Positions 2,109 to 19,407 of a DNA stretch of 64,000 nt are shown one piece after another; the stretch's first letter is position 1, and every line of letters starts with the position of its first letter. Under the pieces are notes generated by a model. The model did no database searches and was not told where the DNA came from. It was given only the letters and a program-made list of their open reading frames with translations. The translations under genes and the position numbers were made by a program. Origin of the DNA: Deltaproteobacteria bacterium (GTDB lineage Bacteria; Chloroflexota; Dehalococcoidia; Dehalococcoidales; BS750m-G39); assembly GCA_030603275.1 (NCBI GenBank), contig JAUVYB010000001.1:125839-189838 (forward strand), given 5' to 3'.

Positions 2109-2165
2109 AGTGGAGCCGGGGTGCCAACAGGCAGAACTTTTGAACTGGTTTTCAGCCTGACTATT
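2109..2165 (+). repeat. att-like repeat copy 1 (encodes SGAGVPTGRTFELVFSLTI)
   Basis: 43/57 identical to 6021-6077 by manual alignment. Confidence 0.75.
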
Positions 2166-2384
2166 ATACACCCTGGCTCTCGTCATTTAACACCCTGGCT
2201 CTGGCCGCAGACAAATCTACCGACAAATAGCGGGGCCTGCGACTCGCCGCAACACCAGAAGTCAGGTGGATATTGCTTTCTTCCCTGGAACAACAGCTTC
2301 CCAGCTCCTTCCGGCGGATAAGAAATGATGTTATCCACAGCGTATCCTCTCAGGTGTTCGCATTGGAATACGTGTGCCTGAACG

Positions 2385-2393
2385 TGGTATAAT
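2385..2393 (+). promoter_or_regulatory. extended -10 promoter for the GH26-GT2 pair
   Basis: TGGTATAAT about 43 nt upstream of ATG 2436. Confidence 0.5.
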
Positions 2394-2435
2394 TGCCTGT
2401 TGTCCGTTTTTAACTGGAAGGCATGCTAAACTAAT

Positions 2436-3596
2436 ATGAAGGTTTTGCTGATGCTGGTTATATTGATGCCTCTTGGAATGGCTGCCTGCACTGTTCACCC
2501 GGAAGAGACGGCTATCCCTTCGCTGGCGCGCCTCGAACCCGCCAGCGGCACCTATTACGGTGTGCATCTTGACTGGGAGCAGGATACCGCAGCCGCTTAT
2601 AATCAGCGCCTCGGGGTGCCGGCGGCGGTCTATGTCGCCTTCTTCCCGTTTCCTTTCAGCGAGACCGACAAGGCTAATGTCGATGCTTTCATCGGGCAGG
2701 TAGCCGCAGAAGAAGGCATGGCCCTGATCACCCTGCAACCGGAATCGGGCCTGGACAGGGTTACGGCCGCCGTGGCTTATGACTTTGCCGGGCTTATGGC
2801 GGAATATAACCAGAGCGGTGTTCCTGTCTTTGTCCGCTTTGCCCACGAAATGAACGGCTCCTGGTATTCATGGGGCCAGCAACCGACAGACTACATACGA
2901 GCCTTCCGCACGCTGGCTGAGGCAATTCACCAGCGCACAGCTCTCAGCGCCATGCTCTGGGCGCCCAACTATGGCGGCGGCTACCCATTTGCCGCTGGAC
3001 GTTATGAAGCCTCTCCTCAAAGCAGTGATTTTCATCTCCTGGATACTAACCAGGACGGCCACCTTGATATGAGTGACGATATGTACGCCCCTTACTACCC
3101 TGGTGACGATGCCGTCGACTGGGTAGGCATGTCGGTGTACCACTGGGGCAGCCAGTATCCCTGGGGCGAAAATGAGATTCCCGAAGCGGGCAAGTTCACT
3201 ACCCAGATTACCGGCGCCTATATTGGCTTAGATAGCGACCACCGGCCGGTGCCGGACTTCTATCAGACCTACGTGGAAAAACATGGAAAGCCAATGGCTA
3301 TCCCGGAGACGGCGGCTCTCTATAACCCGGACCTCGGAGGCGATACCGAACTGGATATCAAGCAGGCCTGGTGGTGGCAGGTGTTCAGCGCCGAGGTGGC
3401 CGAGGATGTCCCCGGAATCAAGATGATTAGCTGGTTTGAAGCGCGCAAATACGAAAGCGAGGTCGGCACTACCCTCGATTGGACGGTTACCTCTAACCCG
3501 GTGCTGCTCCAGGCCTACCTGGATGACCTGCCCCGCTCGCGTTTGCTCTTTGCCACCAACCTCCCCGATTTTTCCCCGGCGGGGAACCAGAAATGA
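2436..3596 (+). CDS. glycoside hydrolase family 26 lipoprotein
   Basis: Lipobox-like MAAC; GH26 motifs RFAHEMNGSWYSW (acid/base Glu), YYPGDDAVDWVG, KPMAIPET (nucleophile Glu). Confidence 0.85.
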   Translation: MKVLLMLVILMPLGMAACTVHPEETAIPSLARLEPASGTYYGVHLDWEQDTAAAYNQRLGVPAAVYVAFFPFPFSETDKANVDAFIGQVAAEEGMALITLQPESGLDRVTAAVAYDFAGLMAEYNQSGVPVFVRFAHEMNGSWYSWGQQPTDYIRAFRTLAEAIHQRTALSAMLWAPNYGGGYPFAAGRYEASPQSSDFHLLDTNQDGHLDMSDDMYAPYYPGDDAVDWVGMSVYHWGSQYPWGENEIPEAGKFTTQITGAYIGLDSDHRPVPDFYQTYVEKHGKPMAIPETAALYNPDLGGDTELDIKQAWWWQVFSAEVAEDVPGIKMISWFEARKYESEVGTTLDWTVTSNPVLLQAYLDDLPRSRLLFATNLPDFSPAGNQK

Positions 3597-11912: not shown

Positions 11913-12548
11913 TTATCCGCTATGTTTAATTTCCAGCGAACCTTTTTGACTTTCCCCCCAATCACCAAAGACTACATACGTAATTCTGAGTCTCGTTGAT
12001 TTAATAGCAAGCTCTTTACGCCTTCTGAGTCTCAATGTGCCCAGATGTGTATAATTATCTACATAACAAGTGTATTCGGGTTTATCACCACTATAAAAAG
12101 TAACTACAAAGGTATCAGCACCACCTGATGGTTTTCCGGACAGTCTATCACCCTCTAACTCGCGAATTAGATATTTTTCAAAAATGCTTGGTATCTCCAA
12201 TTGTATTTGATATGTGCTTGCAATCTTATCCCCTTTGTTATATGCAAAAATTGGGATTGTGTGTTCTTCCTGCCCCATATCGATAGACTTCCTAGTTGTA
12301 CCACTTTCGTCAAAGGTCAGTTTAAGAAGCGGCCGAGACAGAGACTTGCGAAATTTTGCTGTTGCAAATAGTAAGGAGAAGATTATACCTATGGTAGCTA
12401 CCGCACTGAACAGCAGTTGTGCGTTAGCATATTTCAACGAGTCTTCCTGTAATGCAAACGGGCTCCAGAAACATGACCATAGAATCGCGCCAAGAATTAG
12501 GATTACAAAAATTGTGGCAGGCCAATAGTAATTTCGCCAAAAGCTCAT
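11913..12548 (-). CDS. hypothetical membrane-anchored protein (AT-rich)
   Basis: 211-aa ORF with AGGAGG RBS and two N-terminal hydrophobic helices; GC clearly lower than flanking genes. Confidence 0.7.
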   Translation of the reverse strand: MSFWRNYYWPATIFVILILGAILWSCFWSPFALQEDSLKYANAQLLFSAVATIGIIFSLLFATAKFRKSLSRPLLKLTFDESGTTRKSIDMGQEEHTIPIFAYNKGDKIASTYQIQLEIPSIFEKYLIRELEGDRLSGKPSGGADTFVVTFYSGDKPEYTCYVDNYTHLGTLRLRRRKELAIKSTRLRITYVVFGDWGESQKGSLEIKHSG

Positions 12549-13962: not shown

Positions 13963-14612
13963 CTTTCTTTCTTGCCGGTTTCTTTCTTGTCAGGAGGCCG
14001 GCGTTTCTCCAGCCCGGCGATTCTTTTTTCCAGGTCTTCCAGCCTCTCCCCTACCGGGTCGGGCAGCTTCTCCACGGTATCGGTATCGGGGTTCCTCATC
14101 GCCACCACCCGCCCCGGCACCCCGACCACGGTAGCGTTGGGCGGCACCGAGTTTATCACCACCGAGCCGGCGCCGACCTTGGCGTTATCGCCGATGGTGA
14201 TGTCCCCGATAATCTGTGCCCCCACCCCCACCACCACGTTTTTGCCCAGGGTGGGGTGGCGCTTTACGTGCTGCTGGCTGGTCCCGCCCAGGGTCACCCC
14301 CTGGTAGAGGGTAACGTTGTCGCCAATCACCGAGGTCTCGCCGATAACCACCCCCATGCCGTGGTCAACGAAAAAGCCCTCGCCGATTTTAGCCCCGGGG
14401 TGAATCTCGATGCCGGTAAAAAAGCGGCTGCAATGAGAGATAAGCCGGGGCAGCACCGGAACGTGCCACCGGAACAGGGTGTGGGCCAGGCGGTGGTTTT
14501 GGCGGGCATGAAAGCCGGGGTAGGCCAGCAGAATCTCCAGGGTGCTGACCGCCGCCGGGTCATGGTCAAAAGCCGCCTTAATATCTCTTTTTATGCTGCT
14601 GCAAAGTCCCAT
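13959..14612 (-). CDS. cysE: serine O-acetyltransferase
   Basis: [33 protein letters not shown] hexapeptide repeats. Confidence 0.96.
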
Positions 14613-14617
14613 TTAAG

Positions 14618-15109
14618 TCAATCTCCGGTTATTAAGACCACGGCCTGAGCCGCTATTCCCTCCCCTTTACCCACAAGCCCCAGGCCGTTAGCGGTGCTGG
14701 CCTTGACGCTTACCCGGTCTACCTCGATACCGAGGGTCTGGCTTAAGCTCTGCCGCATCCGGTCGATGAACCCGGCCAGCTTGGGCTCCTCGGCGATAAC
14801 CGTGGCATCGATGTTAACTATCCGCCAGCCCTTGGCGGCCAGCTTTTCCCTCACCTCTTCGAGCAGAATCAAGCTGGAGATATCCTTGTACTGCGCTTCG
14901 CCGGGCGGGAAATGGCCGCCGATGTCACCCAGTGCGGCCGCGCCGAGCAGGGCGTCGATAACGGCATGAGTGAGCACATCGGCGTCACTCCAGCCGTCAA
15001 GACCCTTACCGAAGGGTATCTCCACCCCCCCGATAACGAGCTTCCTCCCCTTGACCAGGGGGTGGGCATCATAGCCAATGCCAACCCGCAGCTTATTTTC
15101 CACGCTCAA
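14618..15109 (-). CDS. ispF: 2-C-methyl-D-erythritol 2,4-cyclodiphosphate synthase
   Basis: GIGYDAH, SDADVLTHA, GDIG-x-HFP. Confidence 0.96.
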   Translation of the reverse strand: MSVENKLRVGIGYDAHPLVKGRKLVIGGVEIPFGKGLDGWSDADVLTHAVIDALLGAAALGDIGGHFPPGEAQYKDISSLILLEEVREKLAAKGWRIVNIDATVIAEEPKLAGFIDRMRQSLSQTLGIEVDRVSVKASTANGLGLVGKGEGIAAQAVVLITGD

Positions 15110-15776
15110 GCAGAGCCTCCGCTATTAACAGGTCATCACTGTTGGTTATCTTTATATTATCATAAGAGCCCATATAGAGCTTAACCTTATTGCCCAGTGC
15201 CTCCACCAGCGAGGCATCGTCGGTCACCTCGCCTGCTGCCTTCCGGTAGGCTTTAGAGATTATACCGACACGAAACACCTGCGGAGTCTGCACCGCCCAT
15301 AGATTTTGACGTGGCGGCGTCTGGCGCACTATTCTATCTTCCCCGGCCATCTTAATAGTATCGATGACGGGAACGGCGGCTGCCGCCGCCCCGGTCTCTT
15401 TAGCCGCCTCCAGACCCCGCTCGATTAATTCTTTAGTCACCAGGGGGCGGGCGCCGTCGTGGATTACCACCCAGTCACATTTATCAAGCTGCTTTAGCCC
15501 CGCCGCCACCGAATCCTGCCGCCTTTTCCCCCCGGCGCAGACCTCTATGGGCCTGGACCACTCCTCCCCGCCTATCAGCTTACGGCACTTTTCCACATTA
15601 TTTTCACTCACTACCACTACTATCTGGTCAACTGCTTTACAGCTGTCAAAGGCATCAAGCACATAGGAAAGTGCCGGCTTTCCCCCCAATTGGACAAAGA
15701 CCTTATCAACTCCGTTCATCCGCCGGCTCTCCCCGGCGGCAACAATAACTGCGCCCACTTTTTGAGGGTTGTTCAT
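15093..15776 (-). CDS. ispD: 2-C-methyl-D-erythritol 4-phosphate cytidylyltransferase
   Basis: AAGESRRM, IHDGARP, QTPQVF, NIKIT. Confidence 0.96.
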   Translation of the reverse strand: MNNPQKVGAVIVAAGESRRMNGVDKVFVQLGGKPALSYVLDAFDSCKAVDQIVVVVSENNVEKCRKLIGGEEWSRPIEVCAGGKRRQDSVAAGLKQLDKCDWVVIHDGARPLVTKELIERGLEAAKETGAAAAAVPVIDTIKMAGEDRIVRQTPPRQNLWAVQTPQVFRVGIISKAYRKAAGEVTDDASLVEALGNKVKLYMGSYDNIKITNSDDLLIAEALLERGK

Positions 15777-15818
15777 TAATTTCCCATCTTCCTTTACTGA
15801 CTTAACAGACTTCTGACT

Positions 15819-16430
15819 CTATGCCCAAGTCGGCGGGCGCTGTAAAATGAATCCATCTGCCCTTTTTACTTTATCCGGGAGAAGACTGTGGGCAAGCTTC
15901 GCCCGACCAATATGCAGATACGCATGAGCCACACCAATGAGTTCAATGGACGAGCGTTTGGGTGGGAAGGCTACAACAACACGTTTTTGCGCAAATGTAT
16001 TTTTAATAGACATGACAAGCGGTACCAGGTCACTGTCAGCCGACAACAGTAACGCAGTATCAAATTTATTTTTAGCAGCATCTGAAAACATTTCTACTGC
16101 AATATTCACATCTGTCATCTTTTCATTTGGAACTCGGTCTTTAAACCCACAATGTGGGCACTCACGTGGATTCAGCTGGTACTTCCCATAAAATATCTCA
16201 AGGTTGGGTAAGGTTTCAAGTGCCTCAAGAAATGTAGACTGCCGCTTTTCCTTGTCTGATGACCCAATGACTCTTGCCGTGAAATATTTGGTCATGCTCA
16301 ACTCTTGATTGAATTTAATGAGATTCTGCACCAGAAGTTGAACGTTAAGCCAATAGAATCGCCGCCAGCCCTTTTCCCTTAAACCGAAATATAGGTTAAA
16401 TCCATCTATGTAGGCGATAACTCTATTCAT
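15819..16430 (-). CDS. NYN-domain (LabA/DUF88, PIN-fold) putative ribonuclease
   Basis: YIDGFNLY, EKMTDVNIA, LSADSDLVP acidic catalytic motifs; CPHCG insert; AT-rich. Confidence 0.9.
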   Translation of the reverse strand: MNRVIAYIDGFNLYFGLREKGWRRFYWLNVQLLVQNLIKFNQELSMTKYFTARVIGSSDKEKRQSTFLEALETLPNLEIFYGKYQLNPRECPHCGFKDRVPNEKMTDVNIAVEMFSDAAKNKFDTALLLSADSDLVPLVMSIKNTFAQKRVVVAFPPKRSSIELIGVAHAYLHIGRAKLAHSLLPDKVKRADGFILQRPPTWA

Positions 16431-16474
16431 TGTATCCCCTAATCAATTTTGTTAACCATGGCGTAATAATCATA

Positions 16475-16503
16475 TTGACATTCATTATATTCTATGCTAG
16501 TAT
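16475..16503 (+). promoter_or_regulatory. sigma70 promoter divergent from the NYN gene
   Basis: TTGACA-17 nt-TAGTAT with extended -10 TG. Confidence 0.75.
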
Positions 16504-16509
16504 TACCAT

Positions 16510-16574
16510 ACTACAGCGCCAGTGTGAGTAACACTGGTCCGACGGCCTTCTGTAAATACAGGAGGCCGTTTCTT
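16510..16574 (+). ncRNA. putative small RNA with two hairpins, the second an intrinsic terminator
   Basis: CCAGTGT-GAGTA-ACACTGG, then ACGGCCTTCTGT-AAAT-ACAGGAGGCCGT-TTCTT; the G:U pair and U tail fit only the + strand; no ORF. Confidence 0.6.
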
Positions 16575-16577
16575 ACT

Positions 16578-17951
16578 TTAACTCCTCTTTACCAGCCCCA
16601 CCCTTATCGCCTCCCTCAGCGTGCTCACCGGGACAATCTTTATATTTTTAGGATTTGAAATATTAGCTCCGGCCCTGGGCACCAGGCAGCGCTTGAATCC
16701 CAGCCGGGCGGCTTCGGCCACCCTTCGGTCCAGCTGGGAGACGGCTCTCAGCTCACCGCTCAAGCCCACCTCCCCCACCGCCGCCAGCTGCGGGTCGACG
16801 GCAATATCTCTGGCGCTGGAGGCGATGGCCAGGGCAATACCCAAATCAGCCGCCGGCTCGGCGACCTTCAGCCCGCCGGTGACATTGGCGATAATATCCT
16901 GGTTGCCCAGCCTTAAATTCGCCCTCTTGGTCAGCACGGCGGTAATCAGCAATAAACGCCCGAAGTCAACCCCGTTGGCGGTGCGCCGGGGCAAGCCAAA
17001 AGATGTGGGCGTGGTCAGGGCTTGAATCTCCACCAGCAGGGGACGGCTGCCCTCCAGTGTGGGCACCACCGCCGAGCCGATGGCCTCCCCCCACCGCTGG
17101 GATAGGAAGGCTTTGGACGGGTTGTCCACCTCCACCAGCCCCTCCTGCTTCATCTCAAAGACGCCCACCTCGTTGGTGGAGCCGAAGCGGTTTTTCACCC
17201 CCCGCAGCAGCCGGTAGGCACTGAAGGGCTCGCCCTCAAGATAGAGAACCACATCAACTATATGCTCCAGTACTCTGGGACCGGCGATAGCGCCGTCCTT
17301 GGTCACATGGCCGGCCACGAAAACGGGCACGGCGCTGGGCTTGGCCCAGTGCATCAGCCTCAGGGTGCACTCCCGCACCTGGCCGATGCTGCCCGCCCCC
17401 GAATCCAGCTCGGGGAGGTAAACCGCCTGTATGGAATCGATGACCACCAGCGACGGGGCCAGTTGCTCCAGGTGGCTCAGGATAGCCCCCAGGTCGGTTT
17501 CGGAAAGCAGGTAAAGCCTCTCCCCGCTTATTCCCAGCCGCTCCGCCCTTAGCCTTATTTGAGATAACGTCTCCTCGCCGGAGACATAGGCAACCTTGCC
17601 CCCCGCCCCGGCCACCAGAGCCGAAATCTGTAGCAGCAGGGTGGACTTGCCGATACCGGGCTCACCCCCGACGAGCACCAGCGAGCCGGCCACCACCCCT
17701 CCCCCCAACACCCGGTTCACCTCAGCCATAGGCAGGGGAAGGCGGTCGGAGGAATTAATGGCCACCTGGGATAGCTCGCGGGGCGGGTTTTCCAGGGCGG
17801 AGACGTTAGGCGGAGCCGCCGCGGTCACCCTGGTCTCAGCAAAGGTATTCCACTCCTGGCAGTTAGGGCAGCGCCCCAGCCACTTGAGGCTCTCCTTGCC
17901 GCAGTTCTGGCAGACAAAGATAGTCCTGGCTGATTTATCTGATTTACCCAC
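16578..17951 (-). CDS. radA: DNA repair protein RadA/Sms
   Basis: CQNC...CPNC zinc finger, GEPGIGKST, KNRFG, Lon-like C-terminus. Confidence 0.97.
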   Translation of the reverse strand: MGKSDKSARTIFVCQNCGKESLKWLGRCPNCQEWNTFAETRVTAAAPPNVSALENPPRELSQVAINSSDRLPLPMAEVNRVLGGGVVAGSLVLVGGEPGIGKSTLLLQISALVAGAGGKVAYVSGEETLSQIRLRAERLGISGERLYLLSETDLGAILSHLEQLAPSLVVIDSIQAVYLPELDSGAGSIGQVRECTLRLMHWAKPSAVPVFVAGHVTKDGAIAGPRVLEHIVDVVLYLEGEPFSAYRLLRGVKNRFGSTNEVGVFEMKQEGLVEVDNPSKAFLSQRWGEAIGSAVVPTLEGSRPLLVEIQALTTPTSFGLPRRTANGVDFGRLLLITAVLTKRANLRLGNQDIIANVTGGLKVAEPAADLGIALAIASSARDIAVDPQLAAVGEVGLSGELRAVSQLDRRVAEAARLGFKRCLVPRAGANISNPKNIKIVPVSTLREAIRVGLVKRS

Positions 17952-17990
17952 GGAATGACTTTAACTGATTCAGAGGGGTATTTCAAGGGG

Positions 17991-18139
17991 ATTTAAGGGA
18001 ACCCTATCCCCTTTATGCACCCTAAAAAATCTTTGATTTTTCAGGGAACCCGCTTTATCCCCTTCCCCTTGCCAAGGGGAAGGGGAATTATTTTTTAGAA
18101 AGAGGGGCTAACGCCCCTCTTAAACTCCCCATTAGATAG
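17991..18139. repeat. REP-like double-palindrome repeat, copy B, with nested 36-bp insert
   Basis: Colinear with 11795-11904 except for 18017-18052, which is flanked by duplicated CTTTAT. Confidence 0.85.
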
Positions 18140-18180
18140 GGATTTCCCCCTCCCCTTCTCCCCCCTCCCAACAAAACGAG

Positions 18181-18220
18181 GGGTTAAAGACACAGCCCTA
18201 TAGGGCGGGAGGGTGGGAAG
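18181..18220. repeat. second repeat motif, inverted relative to 23482-23523
   Basis: Reverse complement CTTCCCACCCTCCCGCCCTATAGGGCTGTG vs CTTCCCACCCTGCCCGCCCTATAAAGGCTGTG. Confidence 0.7.
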
Positions 18221-18231
18221 AAAAACCACCG

Positions 18232-19407
18232 CTACATAAGCATGCCCAGCAGTATGCCGGCAACTACGGAAGTGGCAACTGCCCCCGCCATATTGGGCCC
18301 CATGGCATGCATCAGCAGGAAGTTTCTCGGGTTAGCCTCCTGCCCCATCTTCTGCACCACTCTGGCCGACATCGGGATAGCCGATACACCGGCGGCGCCT
18401 ATCAGCGGGTTTATCTTTTCCTTGAGGAAGAGGTTGACCAGCTTGGCCGTCCACAGCCCGCCGGCGGTGCCGAAGGCAAAGGCTACTATGGCCAGCCCGA
18501 TAATGGCCAGGGTCTGGCCGGTAAGGAATACCGAGGCCGGCATCAGCGCCCCCACCGTTATTCCCAGCAGGAAGGTGAGGACATCGATAAACACCCCACC
18601 CGCCGCCTGGGCCAGCCTATCGGTAACCCCGCTGACCCGCAGCAGGTTGCCGAACATGAACATGCCGATAAGGGGTACCGACTTGGGCACGAGCAGGGCG
18701 GCGACCAGAAATACAATTATGGGGAAGAGAATCTCCTCCAGCTTGGAGACCTGGCGCAGCTGGGGTTTCATAACTATGGCCCGCTCTTTTTTGGTGGTCA
18801 GCAGCCTTATTATCGGCGGCTGGAGAATAGGCACCAGGGCCATGTAAGAATAGGCTACCAGCGTAATCGGGCCCAGCAGCCGCGGGGCCAGGGCGGCGGT
18901 GAGGAAAACGGTAGGCGGCCCATCGGAGCCGCCGATGATGCCGACACAGGCCGCCTCGTTTACGGTAAACATCCCGGAAACGTAGGCGATGATAAATACA
19001 ATGAAAACACCCAGCTGGGCGGCGGCGCCGAAGAGAAAGGATACGGGACGGGCGATAGTAGGCCTGAAATCGGTCATGGCGCCTACCCCCAGGAAGATGA
19101 GCAGCGGAATTACCTCGGATTCAATCCCGTAGGTGTAGAGAATATTTAATAATCCTATCTCGCCCCTGCCTATGGCCTGTATCAGCCCGCCTAAAGTCGG
19201 CACCTCGGCGGGGAAGCCCTCGGCGGAATACACCATCATGCCGCCGAGGGGAAGATTGACCATAAGGATACCGAAGCCTATCGGCACTAACAAAATGGGC
19301 TCCATCTTCCTGGCGATGCCAAGGTAGATAAGGAGCCCGGCGATTAAGAACATTATAATATTGCCCCAGCTTAATGAGCCGAAGGCGGTTTCGTAGAGGC
19401 CAAACAC
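18232..19407 (-). CDS. Na+-translocating decarboxylase beta subunit (OadB/GcdB/MmdB family)
   Basis: EPILLVPIGFG, GAMTDF, IIGGSDGP, AYSYMALVP, HAMGPN. Confidence 0.93.
   Translation of the reverse strand: MFGLYETAFGSLSWGNIIMFLIAGLLIYLGIARKMEPILLVPIGFGILMVNLPLGGMMVYSAEGFPAEVPTLGGLIQAIGRGEIGLLNILYTYGIESEVIPLLIFLGVGAMTDFRPTIARPVSFLFGAAAQLGVFIVFIIAYVSGMFTVNEAACVGIIGGSDGPPTVFLTAALAPRLLGPITLVAYSYMALVPILQPPIIRLLTTKKERAIVMKPQLRQVSKLEEILFPIIVFLVAALLVPKSVPLIGMFMFGNLLRVSGVTDRLAQAAGGVFIDVLTFLLGITVGALMPASVFLTGQTLAIIGLAIVAFAFGTAGGLWTAKLVNLFLKEKINPLIGAAGVSAIPMSARVVQKMGQEANPRNFLLMHAMGPNMAGAVATSVVAGILLGMLM

Follow-up and report, generated by a model that had tools for sequence, protein, structure and literature searches.

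We analyzed a 64,000-nucleotide (nt) stretch of a genome assembly deposited as Deltaproteobacteria bacterium (GCA_030603275.1, contig JAUVYB010000001.1, positions 125,839 to 189,838 of the forward strand), which GTDB places in the Chloroflexota (Dehalococcoidia, Dehalococcoidales, BS750m-G39); this whole stretch is called the window below. Between the genes radA and ispD it carries a gene for a NYN-domain protein of the candidate defense family HEC-09 and, divergent from it, a predicted small RNA with its own promoter and terminator. Comparison of many genomes shows that HEC-09-type NYN genes are hardly ever without this RNA, which moves along with them, and points to a so far undescribed module of an RNA-controlled nuclease. 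The reading that we favor, tentatively and with not quite even confidence, is that the RNA may be a protein-binding inhibitor of the nuclease, by analogy with toxin-antitoxin (TA) systems of type III.

The linkage of the RNA to NYN genes was examined in 80 loci that were picked by NYN protein similarity alone (45-69% identity) and searched with a covariance model of the RNA, R1, at a threshold of E <= 1e-6. The taxa annotated among these loci include Chloroflexota, Ignavibacteriota, Planctomycetota, Bacteroidota, Chlorobium, Acidobacteriota, Actinomycetota, Verrucomicrobiota and others, and several proteobacterial classes are also represented. An R1 match was present in 75 of the 80 loci, and inspection by eye likewise recognized the unit in most of the 80. 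A covariance model built upstream of NYN homologues had been proposed as a comparative test in a preliminary description of this DNA, and the test was positive, with strong covariation. In 70 loci the RNA is divergent and lies less than 200 nt from the NYN start codon, and in three it is co-directional, 16-27 nt before the start codon; the remaining two R1-positive loci have only four tandem copies downstream of NYN and a copy 1380 nt upstream, respectively. The distance from the NYN start codon to the 5' end of the RNA model has a median of 52 nt (range 16-179, n=69). Among the five loci lacking an R1 match, two had merely 115 and 164 nt of upstream DNA, and a third (L052) carries a weak variant scoring 21 bits.

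In the window the gene order, all on the minus strand, is cysS, cysE, ispF, ispD, an open reading frame (ORF) of 203 amino acids (aa), a 147-nt gap and radA. The features of this region are as follows.

15093-15776, minus strand: ispD, the downstream flank of the NYN cassette
15777-16577, no strand assigned: AT-rich cassette with the NYN gene and the small RNA unit, delimited by the drop in G+C content and by the empty site in relatives
15819-16430, minus strand: gene for a NYN-domain nuclease of 203 aa, PADLOC family HEC-09, assigned by Pfam and PADLOC profiles
16475-16503, plus strand: small-RNA promoter, with -35 TTGACA at 16475-16480, a 17-nt spacer and a TG-extended -10 TAGTAT at 16498-16503
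16484-16489, minus strand: putative -10 box TATAAT of the NYN gene, weak, inside the spacer of the small-RNA promoter
16510-16577, plus strand: predicted small RNA of ~65 nt, its 5' end placed by promoter spacing and its 3' end by the T-run
16519-16537, plus strand: hairpin P1, with a 7-bp stem (CCAGUGU/ACACUGG) and the 5-nt loop GAGUA
16541-16570, plus strand: intrinsic terminator hairpin of 13 pairs (7 G-C), then UCUUACUUUA
16578-17951, minus strand: radA, the upstream flank of the NYN cassette

The G+C content is 0.35-0.44 at 15900-16499 versus 0.59-0.69 over radA (16600-17899), and in four relatives (G002, G013, G017 and G010) the radA stop directly abuts the ispD start with nothing in between. 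The cassette is therefore best described as an ~800-bp AT-rich insert. Another relative, G028, has the identical radA-RNA-NYN-ispD arrangement, with the cassette at the matching site. The NYN gene and the small RNA unit arrived together, as one insert.

The 203-aa protein matches Pfam NYN (PF01936) over residues 4-172 (E 2.7e-12, 47.9 bits versus a cut-off of 24.2) and the PADLOC HEC-09 model (PDLC04163) over positions 1-202 of 203 (E 4.1e-85). Its AlphaFold2 (AF2) model has a predicted local distance difference test (pLDDT) value of 93.6, and a Foldseek search with this model retrieved 2qip as the best match (E 7e-10) as well as the MARF1 NYN domains 5yaa (7.6e-5) and 6fdl (4.3e-4); a PDB sequence search with the protein gave no match at E <= 0.01. 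The protein is predicted to have a NYN/PIN-like fold and ribonuclease activity. Among 45 homologues, D9, E103, D132 and D134 are invariant and D107 is conserved in at least 90%, and by analogy these five residues might be the catalytic metal-binding residues. Profile match, base composition and homologues together bear out what the preliminary description had seen here, an AT-rich NYN gene with acidic motifs between radA and ispD. It had also noted that no protein antitoxin is adjacent, and we likewise found no further ORF with protein support adjoining the NYN gene in the window. This HEC-09 gene lies outside any Hma or multi-gene defense system, being flanked by radA and ispD; elsewhere some NYN loci, and some solo copies of the RNA, do sit amid defense genes.

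The small-RNA promoter scores 10/12 and is the best among seven promoter-like sites in 14000-19000, a region whose shuffles contain 2.4 +/- 1.3 such sites. The TATAAT at 16484-16489 on the other strand has no good -35 and is absent from the promoter scan list. R1 matches 16505-16577 with 55.1 bits (E 3e-15), and the plus strand of this interval folds with -34.5 kcal/mol versus -16.5 +/- 2.8 in 200 shuffles (z -6.4, no shuffle equal); the complementary strand (150 nt) has a z of -2.7. A U:G pair in the terminator stem on the plus strand would be C:A on the minus strand, and only on the plus strand does a T-rich tail, TCTTACTTTA, lie 3' of the stem. The unit is well beyond chance because it recurs beside NYN homologues, and judging from its signals the small RNA is presumably expressed in the window organism. 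The extended near-consensus promoter, the 7-bp hairpin with its GAGUA loop and the plus-strand terminator with its U tail are all where the preliminary description had placed them, the terminator stem being counted here as 13 pairs. It was also right that no ORF fits the gap: a 54-codon plus-strand ORF (16494-16658) begins inside the -10 element and was rejected, because its start precedes any transcript of the promoter and because homologous regions vary by compensatory changes, a non-coding pattern.

Rfam 15 gave no match to the window region at E <= 10, the abiF motif RF03085 included, and none at E <= 1 in 20 related loci, canonical RNA variants included. In three further loci (L007, L118 and L332) only the ribosomal RNA (rRNA) of L007 reached a gathering score, the other matches being unrelated and sub-threshold. 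Two candidate identities were set aside. An anticodon-stem-loop mimic was dropped, as the loop position matching U33 varies between U, G and A. An integron attC-like site was weakly rejected: attC sites are single long imperfect hairpins, unlike the two separate, independent hairpins of the small RNA, and the flanking AAC and GUUUC are complementary over at most 3 nt.

The seed alignment for R1 comprised 57 sequences chosen by a hairpin filter, so that its percentage of paired positions is biased towards structure, and it had strong covariation. In A4, the alignment of 102 R1 matches, pairing extends to 97.8% of cells, and each of the 15 pairs has changes on both sides; this alignment was fitted to the R1 model, and the percentage leans to structure, the covariation counts less so. 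None of 500 shuffles was as good, and slid controls pair at 35-52%. The fold of the RNA is under selection by this measure. All seven pairs of P1 have changed on both sides across the 102 members, its second-last pair is G-C in 97 of them and its loop has the consensus N-[A/C]-G-N-A, whereas near-invariance is seen in the terminator stem base (ACG...CGU) and the following UUC. All eight modelled terminator pairs covary, and across phyla the stems covary whereas the sequences of loop and linker are kept. The layout is a short 5' tail (about 5-10 unpaired bases), P1, a short linker and the terminator hairpin, with no variable segment. With a promoter defined as either a sigma-70-type site scoring at least 9/12 or a TAnnTTTG box (Bacteroidota-type) at the right distance, 70 of the 102 RNA copies have one, versus 1 of 88 same-strand control regions. 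In most copies the -10 box ends 12-20 nt ahead of the hairpin, and the RNA is therefore predicted to start only 5-10 nt before it. By these signs the RNA is a conserved, covarying and separately promoted family and, from its promoter and terminator, appears to be an independent transcription unit.

The pair is found at varied positions. A search of 61 relatives gave close NYN homologues in G028 (85% identity), G005 (62%) and G060; in the same set R1 found five genomes with one match each, four beside a close NYN homologue and one solo (G012). In five other large genomes, 10 of 10 R1 matches were at NYN loci, one genome having a second NYN-RNA pair. In G005 (contig C38, L007) the NYN-RNA cassette occupies the spacer of an rRNA operon, flanked by the 23S rRNA 3' end (2411-2770) and by the 5S gene (1114-1231) and sharing their orientation; promoter and hairpin are kept, and the terminator stem differs in sequence yet pairs, through compensatory changes. 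NYN homologues also occur on four plasmids. Thermus oshimai JL-2 plasmid pTHEOS01 (L305) has a divergent RNA unit beside NYN (57.7 bits), and a Streptomyces plasmid has NYN with a co-directional unit. These contexts show the NYN gene and the RNA moving as a unit into unrelated genomic sites.

On pTHEOS01 (L305 1-4618) the pair follows genes for a 1161-aa 'helicase-related protein' and a ParB-family protein, and an IS4 transposase gene is located 1.5 kb downstream. The NYN gene there is THEOS_RS12940, and the RNA unit lies on the other strand, about 55-120 nt upstream of it. This plasmid pair is a possible cultivable model.

A second NYN gene of the window genome (contig C14; L005 1408-1959, minus strand) encodes 183 aa, is 36% identical to the first and matches HEC-09 with E 1.5e-17; a search of 400 other genomes of the phylum at E <= 1e-25 found no homologue of it. 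Divergent from it, at L005 1991-2064 (plus strand), is a unit with its own TTGACA/TATAAT promoter, a hairpin and a strong terminator, which R1 scores at 16.8 bits with filters off. Other more distant NYN genes (L008, L322 and L323) also carry weaker-scoring RNA variants of like architecture, which suggests that RNA and NYN co-diverge. The ~180-aa housekeeping-type NYN genes of relatives (L014-L034, 27-33% identity) had no R1 match and no divergent promoter-hairpin-terminator unit, and many of them follow a conserved upstream gene. The RNA is a feature of the HEC-09 branch of NYN.

In several loci the RNA is multiplied. L068 has four tandem units (2157-2560, minus strand), each with a TTGACA-17-TAATAT promoter, RNA and terminator, at ~105-nt spacing; they are convergent with the NYN 3' end, and there is no copy upstream of NYN. 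L084 has three units, among them units that follow one another without promoters of their own, L058, L098, L142 and L178 have doubled copies, and in L043 and L060 copies lie on both sides of NYN. We take the tandem and doubled copies as signs that dosage matters.

Metagenomes and viral contigs were scanned with an exact pattern for one loop variant, and the NYN shares given here and below hold for that variant and sample. The viral contigs contained 30 copies of the RNA pattern, none of the 30 with NYN, and all 11 representatives searched were confirmed by R1; about 19 of the 30 form one group with a 53-nt match. The copies are located after the stop codon of a gene, before a terminase gene or, with their own promoter, near polymerase and primase genes, some lack a promoter and directly follow stop codons, and some stand at the 3' ends of endolysin-like genes. 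The cultured cyanophage Dolichospermum phage Dfl-JY45 has a 54-bit R1 match between two opposite-strand genes, without NYN. Few viral contigs carry NYN itself (10 loci, two with R1). Phage copies without the nuclease would fit a decoy-type counter-defense. One viral copy, at L243 1482-1546 (56.4 bits), lies inside a 1013-codon frame that is open throughout and matches DarB-like antirestriction and endolysin PHROGs; this might be one gene or two.

In the mechanism we favor, the HEC-09 NYN-fold ribonuclease would be a likely toxic or antiviral effector, a dedicated RNA of ~60-65 nt from its own strong promoter would bind it and keep it inactive, and a falling RNA level or displacement of the RNA, for example during phage infection, would release it. 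The RNA-protein contact, the toxic or defensive role of the protein and inhibition as the direction of the effect are suggested by analogy. Protein binding is favored over base pairing because the RNA is almost entirely paired. With regard to a type I (antisense RNA) TA system, a crude duplexfold comparison of the RNA with the NYN start region (n=69) gave no cognate signal: cognate pairs had -25.7 kcal/mol, reversed ones -25.3 and shuffled ones -26.6, and the RNA does not overlap the NYN ORF; it would be antisense to the NYN leader if NYN were read through from radA. Inhibition is favored for several reasons: the loop and linker are kept across phyla against covarying stems; RNA copies are multiplied in some loci; NYN is almost never found without the RNA, which is often alone, an asymmetry like that of toxin and antitoxin; phages carry the RNA without the nuclease; and the cassette is co-oriented in essential and rRNA operons, where the nuclease would be transcribed regardless. 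In a wider version of this proposal, the RNA would be a pan-bacterial antitoxin family for NYN, persisting as an orphan 'immunity' gene after nuclease loss and as decoy copies with which phages would disarm the nuclease; we regard this version as conceivable and somewhat improbable. The preliminary description had suggested three roles for the RNA in an RNA-controlled toxin or defense module, namely to bind, to inhibit or to guide the nuclease. A linked module of NYN and small RNA is supported by the conserved pairing at NYN loci, by the candidate defense family HEC-09 and by the joint transfer, but guiding is unlikely, because the RNA has about 5-10 unpaired 5' bases and no variable single-stranded segment.

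A number of observations weigh against RNA inhibition of the nuclease. Two NYN loci with ample flank (L038 and L095) have no convincing RNA by R1, and in 70 of 73 close upstream cases the RNA is opposite to the classical type III orientation. A HEC-09 representative has been tested, and the accessible text of that preprint reports no phage protection and mentions no toxicity (bioRxiv 10.1101/2024.01.29.577857). Other such observations concern solo copies of the RNA. The metagenome scan gave at least 120 stretches, the DNA of 80 of which was analyzed, and a copy was called solo if it had no NYN and at least 750 nt of flank on the RNA 5' side. Among the matches listed, 46 of the 80 loci have a NYN match, 44 of these 46 in the usual divergent place; by eye, about 12 of the 46 listed NYN matches look frameshifted or truncated (split or partial profile matches), some perhaps through assembly errors. 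Again among the matches listed, 27 of the 73 loci with either a NYN match or sufficient 5' flank have no NYN. Neighbors of these 27 listed solo loci include AbiD/Abi_2, AbiJ-like, DUF3800, Schlafen-like, Fic, methyltransferase and Cas3 genes, a type IIG enzyme fragment and an IS110 transposase, and 15 of 25 neighbor proteins tested match PADLOC models. Solo copies are often divergent from AbiD, AbiJ-like, DUF3800 and Schlafen-like genes at a spacing like that of NYN, and the unit could serve whichever gene adjoins it.

In a sample of 151 genomes from the phylum of G461, R1 gave 14 matches in 10 genomes, one of them weak and probably false; of the 13 credible ones only four are beside NYN, and in two of these NYN is broken. 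Most solo copies in this phylum belong to one variant, which is tied to Chlorobium elsewhere (L082 and L097), and they adjoin restriction, AbiE and helicase genes and also housekeeping genes. The RNA is thus not exclusive to NYN. Two solo copies are located beside stubs of NYN (L309, residues 2-20, E 4e-5; L319, residues 192-202, E 0.014), and at least some solo copies are therefore leftovers after NYN loss. The occurrence of the RNA without NYN had not been foreseen in the preliminary description and leaves room for an RNA with a role of its own. A blastn search of complete E. coli genomes with one proteobacterial RNA variant gave no match at the sensitivity of blastn.

Some individual solo loci may be mentioned. 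In L140 and L160, both metagenomic, the RNA is divergent from AbiD/Abi_2 genes, a family which uses another RNA (the abiF motif). In L118 (G012, contig C48; 1501-1573) a window-type RNA scores 45.8 bits and has a plausible promoter; its neighbors are a 117-aa ORF of zinc-ribbon-like type on one side and a Mg-chelatase/ComM-like gene on the other, and tblastn found no NYN remnant in this locus.

The main rival to an inhibitory RNA, supported by the short spacing, is control or insulation in cis, in which transcription of the unit, and not its RNA product, would throttle NYN inside highly transcribed foreign operons. A strong promoter would fire away from NYN, overlap the NYN promoter and meet incoming transcription head-on, and in the co-directional loci the unit would be a terminator or attenuator leader. 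With a median spacing of 52 nt (16-179, n=69), there must in most loci be overlap between the RNA promoter and any promoter of NYN, and in the window the NYN-strand TATAAT is indeed inside the RNA promoter spacer. Both insertion sites known in the bacterial family (radA-ispD and 23S-5S) lie within operons that run in the direction of NYN; in three loci the RNA and its terminator come 16-27 nt before the NYN start codon; and by our own reading solo units are mostly divergent from the adjacent gene (~18 vs 7 of 27 among the matches listed). However, control in cis leaves unexplained the conservation of loop, linker and stem base across phyla and the covariation of P1, the tandem array downstream of NYN in L068 cannot occlude a NYN promoter, some phage copies are promoterless and directly follow stop codons, and the T-run is on the wrong strand for stopping transcription that reads in. 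We consider this explanation unlikely, if worth keeping in view.

It is also possible, at a rather low probability, that the RNA is a required cofactor, a scaffold or the preferred substrate of the nuclease, which would then be a ribonucleoprotein enzyme or process the RNA. The evidence of linkage, co-transfer and co-divergence applies equally to such a role, the accessible preprint text describes fold relatives like the NYN domain of MARF1 as RNases (bioRxiv 10.1101/2024.01.29.577857), and in L084 the promoterless successive units make a multi-unit precursor that needs processing conceivable. But a cofactor should decay with its enzyme, whereas many intact RNAs persist without NYN or beside a broken NYN; phage copies without NYN are hard to explain in this way, and no variable segment could be used as a guide.

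Similarly doubtful is an autonomous mobile element which NYN merely adjoins, whether a selfish small RNA gene, a stabilizing 3' end or terminator module, or a repeat at which defense cassettes recombine. Such an element would account for solo copies beside many unrelated defense genes and some housekeeping genes, for the two copies carried by each of some genomes of the G461 phylum, for the copies flanking NYN in L043 and L060, where recombination between repeats could excise the gene, and for viral copies that follow endolysin-like genes at their 3' ends or precede a terminase gene. It does not fit 75 of 80 NYN loci carrying the RNA at fixed orientation and spacing, nor genome-wide matches that fall at NYN loci in 10 of 10 and 4 of 5 cases in two genome sets. 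The empty radA-ispD site of relatives lacks the RNA, which therefore arrived with NYN; at least two solo copies were visibly left after NYN deletion; and its two separate hairpins are unlike attC.

The idea of hairpins that do no more than terminate radA, or that arose by chance, next to a promoter that is a chance match, is refuted and in our view practically negligible: the hairpin does lie 8 nt past the radA stop codon, but, as the preliminary description had argued from the strand, the T-run and G:U pair suit the plus strand only, the unit is also present where no radA is nearby, and the linkage of R1 to NYN, the covariation and the promoter census contradict it.

The surroundings of the cassette also offered some observations. 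The radA-ispD junction of relatives is variable: L271, L273, L274, L277, L278, L279 and L283 hold differing inserted genes, mostly without a Pfam match (359, 174, 362, 446 and 302 aa), and the inserts include one NAD-binding epimerase-like gene and one phage prohead-protease-like gene. Just past the radA start in the window, at 18058-18086 on the plus strand, opposite to radA, there is a 13-pair G+C-rich hairpin followed by ATTATTTTTT, which is the strongest terminator-like site within 14000-19000. A further accessory gene may be present downstream of cysS, where there is a 211-aa ORF (11913-12548, minus strand); its N-terminal part includes a hydrophobic stretch, and several antisense ORFs overlap with it.

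NYN (LabA-like) proteins occur in large numbers, but their functions in bacteria are almost unknown, and the only test of HEC-09 was without phenotype; a conserved RNA partner provides a concrete handle on NYN function. In addition, a structured RNA class that occurs across many phyla and phages, without an Rfam 15 match and not found in the literature, is added. If the RNA does inhibit the nuclease, RNA-based toxin control would extend from ToxN- and HEPN-type RNases to the PIN/NYN superfamily, with the first RNA-inhibited toxin of a PIN/NYN-type fold, and RNA mimicry as counter-defense would gain a new example in the copies on phages. It could also explain the absence of defense by HEC-09, which, according to the accessible preprint text, was cloned with its native upstream region (bioRxiv 10.1101/2024.01.29.577857). 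Should the unit act in cis alone, a nuclease gene would still have in it a portable promoter-RNA unit with which to settle in essential, even rRNA, operons.

With regard to known proteins, the window NYN shares its Pfam family and fold with LabA-like housekeeping NYN proteins (PF01936, COG1432; 2qip), but the genes for the latter in relatives have neither R1 nor a divergent unit. HEC-09 was described as a candidate defense gene embedded in Hma, with a NYN/MARF1-like fold and conserved aspartates (Payne et al., bioRxiv 10.1101/2024.01.29.577857). The window protein belongs to the same family by its full-length profile match, and unlike the Hma-embedded HEC-09 of the accessible preprint text, its gene is located between housekeeping genes. 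Neither 'ncRNA' nor 'non-coding' is used in the main text of that preprint (0 occurrences). We found no link of NYN or HEC-09 to a small RNA in the literature, although subscription journals and bioRxiv supplements may mention one.

Type III TA systems (ToxIN, CptIN and TenpIN) combine an endoribonuclease with a cis-encoded structured RNA and have no protein antitoxin; they have a role in phage defense, their RNA copies can be multiplied, and phages carry look-alike antitoxin RNA. The NYN module is similar in having an RNase-type effector with a structured RNA and no protein antitoxin, and three NYN loci have the classical order of promoter, RNA, terminator and toxin. It differs in its effector, which has a NYN/PIN-like fold instead of the ToxN/AbiQ-type fold, and in its RNA: type III RNAs are arrays of short repeats upstream in the same operon, whereas the NYN RNA is usually a single divergent unit with its own promoter and terminator, as in the window, and type III-like arrays occur in few NYN loci only (L068 and L084). 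[quoted passage not shown] Here too a small RNA with its own promoter and terminator adjoins the gene of an RNase-type effector. However, AbiF is an Abi_2/HEPN-type effector and ours is NYN; RCd22 is described in that text as upstream, on the same strand and co-transcribed by read-through, whereas the NYN RNA is normally divergent; and, unlike the abiF motif RF03085, the NYN RNA has no Rfam match. The NYN module belongs to neither the type III TA nor the AbiF-RCd22 family.

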